From positions 297,825-361,824 of the forward strand of contig PHEH01000001.1 of NCBI GenBank assembly GCA_002841155.1: a stretch of 64,000 bases of DNA. The letters run 5' to 3'. Below the pieces are notes generated by a model. That model did no database searches. It saw only the letters and a program-made list of their open reading frames with translations, and had not been told where the DNA came from. This DNA is from Alphaproteobacteria bacterium HGW-Alphaproteobacteria-18 (lineage in GTDB: Bacteria > Pseudomonadota > Alphaproteobacteria > Caulobacterales > Hyphomonadaceae). The position numbers and the translations under genes are program-made. This document shows, in pieces, positions 7,988 through 25,023 of the stretch (positions are counted from its first letter, which is position 1; every line of letters begins with the position of its first letter).

Positions 7988-8476
7988 TTAGCCAGGAATA
8001 CAGGCCCGTACGCCTGTGACTGGTAGAACTGTTTCCCAGCCATCTGCTCCAGTTGTTACGAGGCGGCCCGACTCTACGCGCTGCCCGCCTTCCAGAACCT
8101 CTCCCGGCTTAAGGTTGAGGTTCACCGACCAGCTTCCATCCGCTGAAAGATAATGCGTTTCGGTGAAGAACTGGCCGAAAACCTCGCCACTCGTATCGGT
8201 CGTTACAAGTCTATGTGCCGTGCCTTCATGGAGTACCAGCGCCTCCCCAGAGGATGCTTCCATGAAAAAGGTAAAGCGGCGTGGAGCCGCCATACCCCAG
8301 AGGAACAAGCCACATTCTCCCGCAGCGAGCCTCTGCGGCGGAAGCCCTTCAGAAGGAACTTCCGCGATGGGAGATTCCATTGCCGTTACCGCAGATCTGG
8401 CCTGGCGTGTTTCGGAGTTCGTGGAACATCCGGCGAGGATGAATGAAGCAAGAAGAAAAGTTAAAGTACGGATCAT
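7988..8476 (-). CDS. Hypothetical lipoprotein at the end of the gsp operon
   Basis: True start is MIRTLTFLL (ATG 8476), overlapping the gspN stop as ATGA. Lipobox LAG-C, 162 aa. Confidence 0.8.
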   Translation of the reverse strand: MIRTLTFLLASFILAGCSTNSETRQARSAVTAMESPIAEVPSEGLPPQRLAAGECGLFLWGMAAPRRFTFFMEASSGEALVLHEGTAHRLVTTDTSGEVFGQFFTETHYLSADGSWSVNLNLKPGEVLEGGQRVESGRLVTTGADGWETVLPVTGVRACIPG

Positions 8477-9231
8477 CTTGGCGCCTCCGGCGCGTTGGTG
8501 GGATAGCGGTAAACATAAGTGCCTGCATCCGGCAGAAACCCGGCAAGGGGAAGACCATAGTGAAACTGTTGAGGGATCACGCCGGATACGCGCGCTTCTA
8601 TATTGCCGCTGCCTCCAAGTCTGAAGCGGGCGGCGGCGTCGAGTTGCGTACCCAGCGGACTTGTCGATTGCAGCGGGATCAGAAGCATATCTCCATCGCA
8701 AGAAAGGCTGCCTGAGAGTTCAGGCCAACCAGGCCCCAGAAGCACGGAGTTCCTGCTGAGAGCATCGCTCCAGGATTGCCCGTCTGCCTTTTCACAGGCG
8801 CCTTTGCGGAAGCGCACAAGTGTTCCATTCAGGCGCGCTTTTCCTCCTGATTGGCGGAGCCAGGCGGCCGCACCCTCCAGCGCCGCAAAATCCAATTCCA
8901 TTTGGAAATCGCGCAATTGTGCGGCCCCGGATGCAAAGGCCGAGGCTTTTCCGGTGCCTCTGCCTGAAGGGCCAGTCCAGTTGAAATCATACTCGACGCC
9001 AAGCTTAAGCAGGGACGCAGGATTCAGTTTCAGGGTGGCATCACCCAAAAGATCGGAACCTGCTTTGAGGCCTGTTATCTTTCCGCCCGAAAGCGTGCCT
9101 TCAACGGATGTCCAGCTGAGCCCGCGACTCTCAGCACCTGAGGCTTTCAGGATAACGCTCAGAGGCGCAAATACTATGAGGCCCGCAATGAACCCTGCCA
9201 AGAGGACAAGTAATAGCAAGAACCGCATCAT
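8473..9231 (-). CDS. gspN: Type II secretion protein N
   Basis: N-terminal TM helix, APLS...VEGTLSGG...LNPASLL pattern, position after gspM. Confidence 0.85.
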   Translation of the reverse strand: MMRFLLLLVLLAGFIAGLIVFAPLSVILKASGAESRGLSWTSVEGTLSGGKITGLKAGSDLLGDATLKLNPASLLKLGVEYDFNWTGPSGRGTGKASAFASGAAQLRDFQMELDFAALEGAAAWLRQSGGKARLNGTLVRFRKGACEKADGQSWSDALSRNSVLLGPGWPELSGSLSCDGDMLLIPLQSTSPLGTQLDAAARFRLGGSGNIEARVSGVIPQQFHYGLPLAGFLPDAGTYVYRYPTNAPEAPR

Positions 9232-9719
9232 CGTGAAGCACCGAGTCTGAATTCTGTATCCGAGACGATACTGCCGTCAGTATCCTGCTGAAGGGTGGCA
9301 TTACTCACATAAACGCCCAGACCCGTCTCCACCTGCTCGACCCATTTGAAGTATGCAGGGCTGGCGGCTCCGGAAGCGCGATAGCGGAACGAGGCTGCGT
9401 GCTGAGCAGTCAAAGGTTCAACTACAAGATTGCTGTTGAGGGCCAATCGCTCTGCCTCAGCCTGCAACGCAGCGATATCCTGACTGGAGAGGCGCGTTAG
9501 GGGGGGTAGGATTACTTGGCCCTGTTCAATCATCGATGCAATCCGGTCCAGGCGCGTAATGGTCTGTGTTGCCCGCTCATGATTAAGCTTTGCCCGCTCC
9601 AAAGTATGAACAGCCGGGCTCAGAACGAGTTGCCAGATGAGCGCAACCGCCAGCAACAGAGCGGCAATGCCAAGTAACATTTTTTCGCGCGGATTGCGCG
9701 CGGTCCACCAGGTGCTCAT
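9228..9719 (-). CDS. gspM: Type II secretion protein M
   Basis: WWTARNPREKMLL N-terminus, single TM, coiled coil; follows gspL. Confidence 0.88.
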   Translation of the reverse strand: MSTWWTARNPREKMLLGIAALLLAVALIWQLVLSPAVHTLERAKLNHERATQTITRLDRIASMIEQGQVILPPLTRLSSQDIAALQAEAERLALNSNLVVEPLTAQHAASFRYRASGAASPAYFKWVEQVETGLGVYVSNATLQQDTDGSIVSDTEFRLGASR

Positions 9720-10816
9720 GGAACCGGCTCCAGTGTAATCTGTGTAAGAGTGCCTGTGTCTTGCGCGGAAGTGGTTGCCGCTGCTTGAAAGCCTCCGCTT
9801 TGAAGGAAGGCAACGATCAGGCTGGTATCGTCCTGCGAGGGGCTATTCAGCGCTGCGGTTAAGCGGCTGGTCTGCGCATCAAAGTTCAGTTCTGTGATGC
9901 TCACTCCCGAACGGGAGGCAATCGCTTCATACAACGTGGCAACAGATATGCGAAAGTCGATCGTATCAGGAGCAGAGACAGCTGCGAGCATGTCTCTGGT
10001 CTCCCGATCAATGTCAGGGGGTATGGCGGCCGCCGGAAAAATTGCGGCGTAGCGCTCAACGGCCCGTTTATTCAGTAGCTCGGTTGCATAGTTGTAATTA
10101 CGCGCTTCGAGGATCAATGTTCCGGTCCATACAGAGACGGCCGCGATGCCAATACCTGCGGCCTTACGCCAGGTGCTGACGCCCTGTTTTGCGTTTCGGG
10201 GAAGAGAAAAGATCCCGGTCCTGAGGTTTGTGCCGGTCCGCGTGGCGCTGCGTTCGGCAAGGCGTATAAGATGCAGTCCATCTTCAAGGCCTGCCATGTC
10301 AGATGGCGCTGAGAACACATCTCGCGCATCCTTAGGAAGCGCGGCATCAATACCGACAATTCTGTTCCCTTCCCGTTGAATGATGCGATCACCTAAATCC
10401 ACGGGATGCTCAATGTCCGTGAACAGACACTGCTCAGGAAATACCCTTCCTGGTGAGAGCCCAGCCTTTGAAAGCAGGTCGAGCCAGGATTTCATCAACT
10501 GCTTGTCGACGACATAGATGTCCCGCTCTGATGAACCTTTTGAGCGCGGCCCCAGAACCAGGTGGATATCTTCGACGGGCTGAGCGAGTTCATCTTCAAT
10601 CGCATAAAGCGCAGCGCGGGAGGCTTCTATTTCATTGCGGGAAGGTATGGAGACACGAAAGTGTCCCACCATCGTCGCTGGGGCAAATGCAATGCAGTCT
10701 ACGGCGCCGAAGGGGCCGCGGTGATGGATCACTTCCAGACGGTCGCCGTGCTCCCGAGCGATCTGGAGCTGACCATCAGGGGCTGCGGGGAGAGCCACAT
10801 AGAGAACGGATTTCAC
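9716..10816 (-). CDS. gspL: Type II secretion protein L
   Basis: AALYAIEDELAQPVEDIHL, W...L..AGL..GRVFPE, NLRTG.F...WRKAA plus TM; GTG start overlaps the gspK stop. Confidence 0.9.
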   Translation of the reverse strand: MKSVLYVALPAAPDGQLQIAREHGDRLEVIHHRGPFGAVDCIAFAPATMVGHFRVSIPSRNEIEASRAALYAIEDELAQPVEDIHLVLGPRSKGSSERDIYVVDKQLMKSWLDLLSKAGLSPGRVFPEQCLFTDIEHPVDLGDRIIQREGNRIVGIDAALPKDARDVFSAPSDMAGLEDGLHLIRLAERSATRTGTNLRTGIFSLPRNAKQGVSTWRKAAGIGIAAVSVWTGTLILEARNYNYATELLNKRAVERYAAIFPAAAIPPDIDRETRDMLAAVSAPDTIDFRISVATLYEAIASRSGVSITELNFDAQTSRLTAALNSPSQDDTSLIVAFLQSGGFQAAATTSAQDTGTLTQITLEPVP

Positions 10817-24009: not shown

Positions 24010-24858
24010 TTACAGATCTCTGGAGTATTCCTCTGGGAACATCTCTTCCCAGCCCCGCTCTCGAAACCATTTGGTGATAACGTATTTGACGCCTGATCTC
24101 ACCTTCATGCCATGATGGATGGTATGGGGGTTGACCGTACCGTCCGGGTTCAGATTATTCCATATGACAGCTTTGCCCTTCTCAGGCATGATTGTTTTTT
24201 CCAGGCGCCGGAAGCGTGTGCCGCCGCCTTCCTCAACATCATTGAGATAGATCATGAAGGTCCAGGTGCGCTGCCCCGTGAACTGGCAGTGGACCTGATA
24301 GTCCCGTGTGCCGGGTGTAAAGTAATCGTAATGGGCCTTGTATTCCTGATCGACATCATAGCGCTGGGCCTGAGTAGCATCAGAATAGGACCAGTGGATT
24401 CCGAGAGCCTCAGCGATAAGCTCATCAAGTTGCATGACAAGGCTGTTGCCCAGAGAACCGATATCAGAAGAACGCGATGTGCGGATCTTCGGATCAGCGA
24501 AGACATCCGTTGTGGTCGATGCGCGAAGGCGTTCGTCTGTTAGGGCAACCAGCTGATCGCAGACCTCGGGAACAAGAAAATTTGGCCAGACATAGAGTTG
24601 GGCCTTAGGGGCCGGAACGCGGCGCAGCAGGGGATGGTTTTTTGCCCGGCGAACAAGGGGCGCGTTCGCCAGGGCGGCGTGATCTGCGTCTGAAACAGGC
24701 CGGCGCCCATCATAAGCGCCGCGCATGAGTGCCCTTATCGCGAGATCATCAAAACCGTTTTGCACCAGCTGGCGCTTGACCTCGTGCGGCTCCACACCGG
24801 ATCTCAGGCGGGCCCACGTATATGTCAGCCACTCATCGTTTACTGCTGGTCTTGTCAT
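24010..24858 (-). CDS. 2OG-Fe(II) oxygenase, prolyl 4-hydroxylase family
   Basis: RTSRS, KAHYD (HxD), RTWTFMIYLNDVEEGGGTRF, TIHHG (distal His), VITKW (2OG-binding Lys). No signal peptide. Start MTRPAV preferred over the upstream ATG at 24960. Confidence 0.92.
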   Translation of the reverse strand: MTRPAVNDEWLTYTWARLRSGVEPHEVKRQLVQNGFDDLAIRALMRGAYDGRRPVSDADHAALANAPLVRRAKNHPLLRRVPAPKAQLYVWPNFLVPEVCDQLVALTDERLRASTTTDVFADPKIRTSRSSDIGSLGNSLVMQLDELIAEALGIHWSYSDATQAQRYDVDQEYKAHYDYFTPGTRDYQVHCQFTGQRTWTFMIYLNDVEEGGGTRFRRLEKTIMPEKGKAVIWNNLNPDGTVNPHTIHHGMKVRSGVKYVITKWFRERGWEEMFPEEYSRDL

Positions 24859-24978
24859 CGCCAATCCATTCCCGTGGTCTGAATAGTGCAGACATGTGAC
24901 GATCAAATGACGGCGCCGGAAAAGACGTTCACGGATTAATACCGGACCTACACGGAACATACCAATATACGTATCTCA

Positions 24979-25007
24979 TTGACGCAAAACTGTAAAATAT
25001 GTACTGT
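24979..25007 (+). promoter_or_regulatory. Sigma70-type promoter for the CAP-domain gene
   Basis: TTGACG-N17-TACTGT, with the ATG at 25015 exactly 7 nt after the -10 element. Confidence 0.6.
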
Positions 25008-25023
25008 GACAGTTATGTTACAG
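25006..25023 (-). promoter_or_regulatory. Near-canonical Pho box facing the P4H gene
   Basis: Minus strand CTGTAAC-ATAA-CTGTCAC versus the E. coli PhoB consensus CTGTCAT-A(A/T)A(T/A)-CTGT(C/A)A(C/T); TACAGT lies 11 nt downstream. Confidence 0.7.

Follow-up and report, generated by a model that had tools for sequence, protein, structure and literature searches.

Background

The closest described relative of the locus studied here is the elpS module of Caulobacter crescentus, in which elpS (CC_0170/CCNA_00169), a TonB-dependent receptor (TBDR) gene (cc0171, CCNA_00170) and the type II secretion system (T2SS) genes gspC to gspN form a common module (Le Blastier et al. 2010, PMC2996285). In this organism elpS is induced by phosphorus starvation and the release of ElpS is T2SS-dependent; the same arrangement has been listed for Xanthomonas, Sphingopyxis and Hyphomonas neptunium (PMC2996285). 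Induction of the elpS promoter requires PhoB (PMC5172544). The direct PhoB regulon from Lubin et al. 2016, as tabulated in supplementary data 2 of Billini et al. 2024 (PMC11208175), includes elpS, the TBDR gene and gspD, E, G and I. In the tabulated data from the same source, the read counts of elpS and the TBDR gene rise by two to three orders of magnitude, at an elpS:TBDR ratio of roughly 2:1, and the upstream neighbour CCNA_00168 is unchanged. The Pho box is defined as tandem 11-bp units, each with 7 conserved bases and 4 AT-rich bases (PMC4415409). Here we analyse a stretch of 64,000 nucleotides (64 kb, hereafter the window) from contig PHEH01000001.1 of Alphaproteobacteria bacterium HGW-Alphaproteobacteria-18 (Hyphomonadaceae), which contains an elpS-TBDR-T2SS locus with repeats of the Pho-box type.

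Two further systems serve for comparison. The Hxc T2SS of Pseudomonas aeruginosa is a dedicated system induced by phosphate limitation; it exports LapA, a soluble alkaline phosphatase, and its secretin is a lipoprotein. PiuC/YbiX-type Fe(II)/2-oxoglutarate (2OG) oxygenases are encoded beside iron-regulated TBDRs and carry a PKHD C-terminal domain.

The core elpS-TBDR-T2SS synteny, Hyphomonas included, and direct PhoB control are already published. In this study, we show that the combination of genes and sites in the window is far beyond chance. We put at about 0.75 the probability that the locus is the Hyphomonas version of the Caulobacter PhoB-controlled phosphorus-scavenging module, served by four Pho-box promoters and not organised as one operon. 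That this module is recognisable, Pho boxes included, in Hyphomonadaceae and Xanthomonadales-like bacteria is reassurance more than discovery, and therefore points to a widespread phosphorus-scavenging strategy in oligotrophic water. The new details are a prolyl-4-hydroxylase-like oxygenase (P4H) and a CAP-domain protein as apparent Pho-box-linked companions, and a small lipoprotein as the fixed last T2SS gene, each of them a testable gene in a tractable relative.

The locus and its orthologs

All positions are window coordinates. The GC content of the window (about 0.57-0.60) is that of a Hyphomonas-like genome, and its GspD and the H. polymorpha protein share 92% identity. The list of open reading frames (ORFs) and a Pfam scan of the window reveal 16 consecutive minus-strand ORFs within 7988-24960, in the order P4H, ElpS-family lipoprotein, TBDR, gspC to gspN and terminal lipoprotein.

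24010-24858, minus strand: P4H, a collagen-type prolyl-4-hydroxylase-like 2OG/Fe(II) oxygenase of 282 aa without signal peptide (PF13640, 2OG-FeII_Oxy_3, E 7.6e-17)
22256-23824, minus strand: ElpS-family surface lipoprotein gene (lipobox LLGAC, Pro-rich tether, right-handed beta-helix)
19527-22178, minus strand: TBDR gene (Plug domain; partial match to TIGR01782, TonB-Xanth-Caul, below cut-off)
18412-19287, minus strand: gspC (T2SSC and PDZ domains)
16454-18415, minus strand: gspD, secretin (Secretin, Secretin_N and N0 domains; signal peptide without lipobox)
14956-16509, minus strand: gspE, ATPase (T2SSE, E 6e-136)
13758-15014, minus strand: gspF (T2SSF)
13287-13745, minus strand: gspG (own Pfam family)
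12772-13278, minus strand: gspH (own Pfam family)
12401-12772, minus strand: gspI (own Pfam family)
11784-12404, minus strand: gspJ (own Pfam family)
10816-11787, minus strand: gspK (own Pfam family)
9716-10816, minus strand: gspL (own Pfam family)
9228-9719, minus strand: gspM (own Pfam family)
8473-9231, minus strand: gspN (T2SSN, E 8.7e-16)
7988-8476, minus strand: terminal lipoprotein, T2SS-associated, 162 aa (LAGC lipobox, invariant motif GECGLFLW and two invariant cysteines)

All 16 genes had been named in the preliminary description of this stretch, and all are present where it placed them, with the starts of P4H and of the lipoprotein now corrected. P4H starts at ATG 24858 and not at 24960, as its homologs align from residue 1-6; the 100 nt upstream of this start are conserved as non-coding sites with indels, not as coding sequence. 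The C. crescentus elpS-TBDR-T2SS background given there agrees with the published work.

Window ElpS is 50% identical to a homolog from Caulobacter endophyticus (E 2e-146, over the beta-helix domain), which sits in elpS-TBDR-gspC..K order; this comparison used the C. endophyticus protein and locus, not C. crescentus sequence. Identity of this degree within the same synteny therefore indicates a known system in a related family, and supports the locus as ortholog of the C. crescentus elpS-TBDR-gspC..N module. Synteny was surveyed in 80 genome loci retrieved via GspD and in 80 metagenome loci retrieved via ElpS alignment. The order elpS-TBDR-gspC..N-lipoprotein is kept across Hyphomonas and Henriciella. 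Among the metagenomic loci the TBDR gene follows elpS in 61/61, a pairing that points to a surface capture-and-import pair, and gspD lies downstream on the same strand in 37/46. P4H and the lipoprotein, regarded in the preliminary description as extra members at the ends of the module, are indeed present; they are not peculiar to this locus, as both recur elsewhere.

Gene order and a Pho-type site before elpS are thus common to the window and Caulobacter. In contrast to Caulobacter, the window module is flanked by P4H and CAP genes with Pho boxes, ends in a conserved lipoprotein gene coupled to gspN, has a U-tract hairpin between elpS and the TBDR gene, a clade-specific structured elpS leader and a poly-Pro ElpS tether (short and Gly/Asn-rich in Caulobacter), and has no gspO nearby. 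To Hxc, the predicted likeness lies in a T2SS tied to phosphate limitation and to the export of scavenging proteins. The window T2SS differs in that the protein linked to it is a lipoprotein with a beta-helix and a TBDR as partner; its GspD carries a signal peptide of the ordinary kind, and the last gene of the operon encodes a small lipoprotein distinct from the secretin.

Putative Pho-type promoters

A search with the naive consensus CTGTCATNNNNCTGTCAT at up to three mismatches gave 5 matches in the window against 3.7 expected and is uninformative alone. Being no better than chance, it was therefore replaced by a matrix learned from distant relatives. The matrix was trained solely on elpS promoters of marine Hyphomonadaceae, whose intergenic DNA is not alignable with that of the window clade and whose elpS upstream regions contain 11-bp units, four in tandem, with an ATAG-type -10 element after them. 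The learned unit consensus, CTGTCATATAA, equals the classical Pho unit. Scanned as a dimer on both strands (127,958 window positions), the matrix has its top 7 positions all within the flagged promoter regions; the next window match scores 12.8. At least two tandem 11-bp units along transcription are present at five sites.

25002-25034, minus strand: site A, the best Pho match of the window, TTGTATTTCCA CTGTAACATAA CTGTCACAGTA (scores 21.4 from 25023 and 16.8 from 25034)
23929-23972, minus strand: elpS double Pho box of four 11-bp units, GCTTCACGTAA GTGTCATCTAA ACTTCCCGTAA CTGTTGCAATC (score 18.1 from 23972, second best)
24979-25000, plus strand: CAP forward Pho box at the predicted -35 place, TTGACGCAAAA CTGTAAAATAT (score 16.2 from 24979, fourth best)
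24892-24913, minus strand: site B, proximal P4H Pho box, CCGTCATTTGA TCGTCACATGT (score 15.3 from 24913, fifth best), inside the earlier over-long ORF
19320-19352, minus strand: gspC promoter Pho-type repeats, CCGTCTCAGAA CTGTCGCACAA GTGTGATTAAG (scores 15.3 from 19352 and 15.0 from 19341, sixth and seventh best)

Alignments of 18-27 orthologous regions reveal the Pho-type blocks as the best-conserved intergenic segments, with a conserved -10-like hexamer about 8 nt past the last unit. At elpS, where the four-unit layout is common to freshwater and marine relatives, the double Pho box is followed by CTTAAG (23919-23924). At gspC, whose promoter block is almost invariant across 25 loci, the last unit contains GATTAA and the array ends about 33 nt before ATG 19287. 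The TGTCAY-N5-YGTCAY of site B is conserved in 21 loci (score 19.4 in L092); ACTATT lies 8 nt past it and about 35 nt before ATG 24858, and the proximal box is found throughout the Hyphomonas clade. No Pho-type site precedes the TBDR gene (best matrix score 5.6).

In L085 and L086, which served as positive controls, the matrix picked out the promoters of the PstS-like genes. Brevundimonas, Luteimonas and the long-ElpS locus L087 likewise have matches upstream of both elpS and gspC, and the top match of the matrix in the 21-kb Caulobacter locus L170 lies upstream of elpS, at the same place as in the window. In the metagenomic loci the background 95th percentile is exceeded by 90% of the regions upstream of elpS and by 77% of those after the TBDR gene. 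Counted independently of the matrix, a TGTCA-N6-TGTCA match of at least 9/10 stands upstream of P4H in 95% of loci against 1.4% expected (elpS 20%), and one of at least 8/10 before gspC in 36% against 12% expected, with no enrichment before the TBDR gene or internal gsp genes; the loci behind these percentages are related and thus not independent trials.

As in canonical Pho promoters (Escherichia coli pstS, phoA; PMC4415409), tandem 11-bp CTGTCAT units with an AT-rich spacer are oriented with transcription; by prediction they would stand in place of the -35 element, close upstream of a -10 element. The half-sites of the window are more degenerate than canonical Pho boxes (YGTCAY, CTTCCC, TGTTGC), its -10-like hexamers are atypical (CTTAAG, GATTAA, ACTATT), and the CAP promoter differs in having two forward and two reverse units face to face. 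PhoB control of these sites is what we infer from sequence and orthology. Binding by another regulator of the OmpR/PhoB family, or a function as core promoter elements unrelated to phosphate, would fit the fact that winged-helix response regulators share tandem-repeat sites of 10-11-bp spacing, all the more as the elpS and gspC sites of the window are degenerate and neither the window nor the 80 genome loci contain a phoB homolog. We nevertheless regard this as improbable: in a genome of about 58% GC the learned unit is the canonical Pho box down to the free flanks and the AT-rich spacer, pstS-like promoters of other loci are recovered with this matrix, and the Caulobacter orthologs are bound and activated by PhoB (PMC5172544, and the tabulated data of PMC11208175).

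Transcription units and proposed mechanism

A conserved Pho-type array lies in each of the gaps upstream of elpS (185 nt) and gspC (239 nt); the 77 nt that separate elpS from the TBDR gene contain a hairpin and no Pho site. Two hairpins were identified.

22213-22249, minus strand: hairpin between elpS and the TBDR gene, 13 bp, GC-rich, followed by U5, terminator-like
19448-19483, minus strand: hairpin of 15 bp after the TBDR gene, found by folding, with a similar hairpin in relatives at the same place

The 64-nt stretch with the post-elpS hairpin has a minimum free energy of -28.2 kcal/mol (z -3.2), the 84-nt stretch with the post-TBDR hairpin one of -35.2 kcal/mol (z -4.0). The former is likely an attenuator and the latter likely the end of the elpS-TBDR unit. 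The 2:1 ratio of elpS to TBDR reads tabulated for C. crescentus (PMC11208175) is compatible with attenuation, though the Caulobacter locus is without the hairpin. In several marine Hyphomonas (L042, L050, L053 and others) elpS and the TBDR gene are inverted together, in divergent orientation to gspC. Because of the hairpins after elpS and the TBDR gene, the separate Pho arrays and this inversion, we favour separate transcription units, as had been proposed in the preliminary description. One long operon of all 16 genes, with the internal conserved blocks not being promoters, is very improbable. The common strand of the 16 genes and the short or overlapping gaps from gspC to the lipoprotein would suit it; against it stand the arrays in the two long gaps and the hairpin in the third, the inversion of elpS-TBDR relative to gspC, and the absence or different orientation of P4H in other loci.

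We propose the following sequence of events for a PhoB-controlled module. Under phosphate limitation, phosphorylated PhoB (PhoB~P) would bind tandem 11-bp CTGTCAY-AWAW units at the -35 place, about 8 nt upstream of a -10-like hexamer. This would turn on four units: (i) elpS, with read-through past the attenuating hairpin into the TBDR gene; (ii) gspC to gspN and the terminal lipoprotein; (iii) the P4H-like oxygenase; and (iv) the secreted CAP-domain protein encoded divergently. Judging from its C. crescentus ortholog, ElpS is predicted to be exposed at the cell surface via its Pro-rich tether, to be released in a T2SS-dependent manner and to be associated with extracellular phosphatase activity, and the TBDR, its obligate neighbour, would import a phosphorus-containing substrate.

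Several points weigh against this reading. The training arrays were chosen by TGTCA matching, so that the core of the motif is partly imposed, with the flanking C/T and the AT-rich spacer free. At the elpS and gspC sites of the window, strict TGTCA-N6-TGTCA is matched at 7-8 of 10 positions only. As the Hyphomonas sequences analysed contain neither pst nor pho genes, and no phoU or phoB homolog is present in the window or the 80 genome loci, the Pho box is uncalibrated for the organism itself. No Pho box was found before gspC in Caulobacter L170, where the window has a strong conserved array, and the C. crescentus T2SS genes are expressed in rich medium with a modest rise only (PMC2996285). 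About half of the P4H genes outside Hyphomonas (gamma-type) are without a good Pho box. A simple promoter/terminator scan left the relevant elements uncalled: it yielded promoter-like sites in no greater number than in shuffled sequence, the -10-like hexamers were missed by its promoter consensus, and it called neither hairpin, so that these were folded directly instead. Finally, the sequencing runs holding window sequence are groundwater and lake DNA metagenomes only, with zero RNA runs.

The putative divergent CAP promoter

Upstream of P4H, a gene on the opposite strand encodes a putative T2SS substrate.

25015-25794, plus strand: gene of a CAP/SCP-domain secreted protein (Pfam CAP, E 6e-13) with signal-peptide-like N-terminus MLQWKYKAMSLLALAVAAPGVALSEA
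24958-24975, no strand assigned: conserved palindrome between the CAP and P4H promoters, GATACGTATATTGGTATG, seen in alignments; TACAGTATACTGTA in close relatives

This gene and its promoter had been overlooked in the preliminary description, which counted three Pho entry points, before P4H, elpS and gspC. TGTCA-type repeats of 11-bp period do precede all three genes, but the repeat cited for P4H (25005-25023) belongs to the CAP promoter, the fourth of its type. The CAP start codon is an in-frame ATG within TTATGTTACA, shared by all relatives. It follows the -10-like TACTGT (25002-25007) at a distance of 7 nt, which makes the CAP mRNA probably leaderless. Site A overlaps the -10 element, start site and ATG of CAP, is invariant in 21 loci and forms an inverted repeat with 24989-24999. 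In marine Hyphomonas the CAP gene directly follows the T2SS lipoprotein gene, P4H is absent and the CAP promoter is retained, its element kept whole as TTGACAC-N4-CTGTCAC-N8-TAnTGTGACAGTTATGTTACA.

The earlier assignment would make the repeat at 25002-25023 the Pho box of a distal P4H promoter with a 5' untranslated region of about 120 nt. The repeat does read toward P4H, it is the best Pho match in the window and an AT-rich -10-like CATATT comes after it; moreover, several boxes are common in Pho promoters. We consider this assignment unlikely, since P4H possesses a conserved proximal box and -10 element of its own and the repeat includes the start codon of CAP and borders on the -10 element of that gene. 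The repeat sequence, GTGACAGTTATGTTACA on the CAP strand, is conserved in marine loci, in which P4H is absent and no gene lies in the P4H direction; site A thus belongs to the CAP promoter and start codon. The reverse units of site A may be PhoB sites at the CAP promoter. The CAP protein is a candidate phosphate-regulated T2SS substrate.

Besides the palindrome of the window, marine relatives (L069-L074, upstream of CAP) have palindromes CTGTAGTAACTACTACAG and TCCATAATAATGGA beside the CAP Pho box. These palindromes suggest a second, dimeric regulator.

The P4H-like oxygenase

The nearest structures in the PDB are the Bacillus anthracis P4H (5iax/3itq, E 2e-26) and human collagen-type P4H (E 1e-20). 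The catalytic domain of the window protein is similar to that of bacterial collagen-type P4H (B. anthracis, PDB 5iax, 3itq, 5hv0), with HxD...H and Lys conserved; the HYD, the distal H and the K of KYVITKW (HxD...H...K) are shared with a Luteimonas neighbour protein. Unlike the B. anthracis enzyme, window P4H has about 85 extra N-terminal residues, and its gene lies under a Pho box as a recurrent neighbour of a TBDR and a surface lipoprotein. It resembles PiuC/YbiX in being a PF13640-type oxygenase encoded recurrently beside a TBDR gene; the PKHD C-terminal domain was not found in window P4H by the Pfam scan. A search of the literature for prolyl hydroxylases under phosphate control beside TBDRs returned nothing relevant.

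Among the genome loci, P4H together with a divergent CAP gene is confined to the freshwater Hyphomonas clade. In Xanthomonadales-like loci P4H adjoins elpS-TBDR, being divergent from elpS in Luteimonas and Pseudoxanthomonas. We infer from this recurrence and from their promoters that P4H and CAP are Pho-box-linked companions of the module. Possibly, though with lesser probability, they are mere neighbours, with a phosphate regulation of their own or none and no functional tie to ElpS, TBDR or T2SS. P4H is missing from most elpS loci (a homolog occurs within 2.5 kb upstream of elpS in 12/58 metagenomic loci and after the TBDR gene in 2/53), and Caulobacter, Brevundimonas, Coralloluteibacterium and marine Hyphomonadaceae are without it; the frequent lack of a good Pho box in gamma-type P4H genes and the unchanged reads tabulated for CCNA_00168 (PMC11208175) point the same way. 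In favour of companionship, P4H is repeatedly found adjacent to elpS-TBDR, with tandem, divergent and convergent layouts across Alpha- and Gammaproteobacteria, and the Pho-box promoter of CAP is kept both beside P4H and after the T2SS lipoprotein. The tethers agree: those of P4H-linked ElpS are Pro-rich in 29/29 and Gly-rich in 0, whereas 35/66 of unlinked ones are Gly-rich. The link between P4H and tether is confounded by phylogeny, with about 3-4 independent lineages and many Pro-rich tethers without a P4H nearby, and with a Pro run of at least 3 as measure, the association is not significant (p = 0.26).

In several gamma-type loci (L085 2967-4772, L129, L130, L138, L145) a TonB_C gene lies directly downstream of P4H on the same strand, which suggests a P4H-TonB pair dedicated to this receptor.

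It is conceivable, if doubtful, that a cytoplasmic P4H hydroxylates the poly-Pro tether of ElpS, or the Pro-rich spacer of a dedicated TonB, before export. If true, this would be a bacterial hydroxyproline modification that adjusts how far a surface lipoprotein of phosphate starvation reaches, how stable it is or how it is released by proteolysis.

ElpS and its leader

ElpS starts with MLTKNNFRAALLGCAAVALLGAC; the lipobox Cys (C23) is invariant in the alignment, and the Pro-rich tether PPPTVSPPPTSPPPTSPPP leads into a long C-terminal domain. An AlphaFold (AF2) model of this protein shows a right-handed beta-helix (predicted template modelling score, pTM, 0.83). Every homolog has PF28492 (Beta_helix_4), and the window protein itself is without match in the local Pfam library. 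A fold search gave only weak matches to generic beta-helix enzymes. With all of them at E > 0.01, no enzymatic activity is assigned.

23830-23912, minus strand: structured elpS 5' leader, a three-way junction ending at the GGAG ribosome-binding site (RNAalifold)

A covariance model of the leader (R1) matches 25 loci of one freshwater Hyphomonas clade, always upstream of elpS, and has no matches outside that clade; no Rfam family match was obtained. Pairing is kept in 96.7% of cells, and with 2 pairs that covary the covariation support is thin. The leader might stabilise the mRNA or act in regulation.

Some related loci differ in their surroundings. In L085 (Pseudoxanthomonas, 2967-11452) elpS-TBDR has genes for an OprP-type porin and a PstS-like protein as neighbours and no T2SS; in the metagenome contig L086 a PstS-like gene precedes elpS, and P4H follows the TBDR gene convergently. 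A long ElpS form of about 820-910 aa (P0047-P0079) occurs in marine Hyphomonas and Rhodospirillaceae-like genomes; in L087 (5001-7706), the sole long-ElpS locus read, it is followed by a TBDR gene and gspC-D, with a phytase gene nearby.

The terminal lipoprotein and the T2SS genes

The lipoprotein gene has its true start at ATG 8476, which overlaps the gspN stop as ATGA, an arrangement by which it is predicted to be translationally coupled to gspN. In all Hyphomonadaceae loci long enough to include this position, it comes directly after gspN. Because of this fixed position and the coupling, the protein is likely a T2SS accessory. Homologs, 34% and 43% identical, end two distant metagenomic T2SS operons (L088 7001-7495 and L089 7001-7528). 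The one in L088 lies next to pstS-pstCA (11770-14495, after the T2SS); the one in L089 is followed by a prepilin peptidase gene.

The lipoprotein has no Pfam or NCBIfam match and no informative family name. Its AF2 model comprises eight beta strands, with a core predicted local distance difference test score (pLDDT) of about 97, and has no fold match in the PDB (best E 0.04). It shares with T2SS pilotins (PulS/OutS, AspS/GspS-beta) that a small outer-membrane-type lipoprotein is encoded with the T2SS; its predicted fold is all-beta with 8 strands and pilotin families are absent among the matches. Identity with PulS/OutS or AspS/GspS-beta pilotins was thus rejected for want of a sequence or PDB fold match. 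Going by the predicted model, the protein may represent a novel type of T2SS accessory or pilotin whose fold is absent from the PDB; a role in secretin assembly or piloting is our guess.

A tblastn search with the peptidase_A24 of L089 revealed no prepilin peptidase gene (gspO) in the 64-kb window; gspO is presumably located elsewhere in the genome.

Neighbouring features

7525-8043, minus strand: ORF of 172 aa, probably not a gene, which overlaps the end of the lipoprotein gene, has no family match and is of odd composition

Past the CAP and helix-turn-helix (HTH) genes, a gene pair at 26431-32393 (minus strand) encodes a TamB-like protein (1370 aa) and an Omp85/TamA-like protein (616 aa), for which no link to the module was seen. 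The HTH gene itself, of the XRE type, is located at 25868-26251 (minus strand), beyond the CAP gene.

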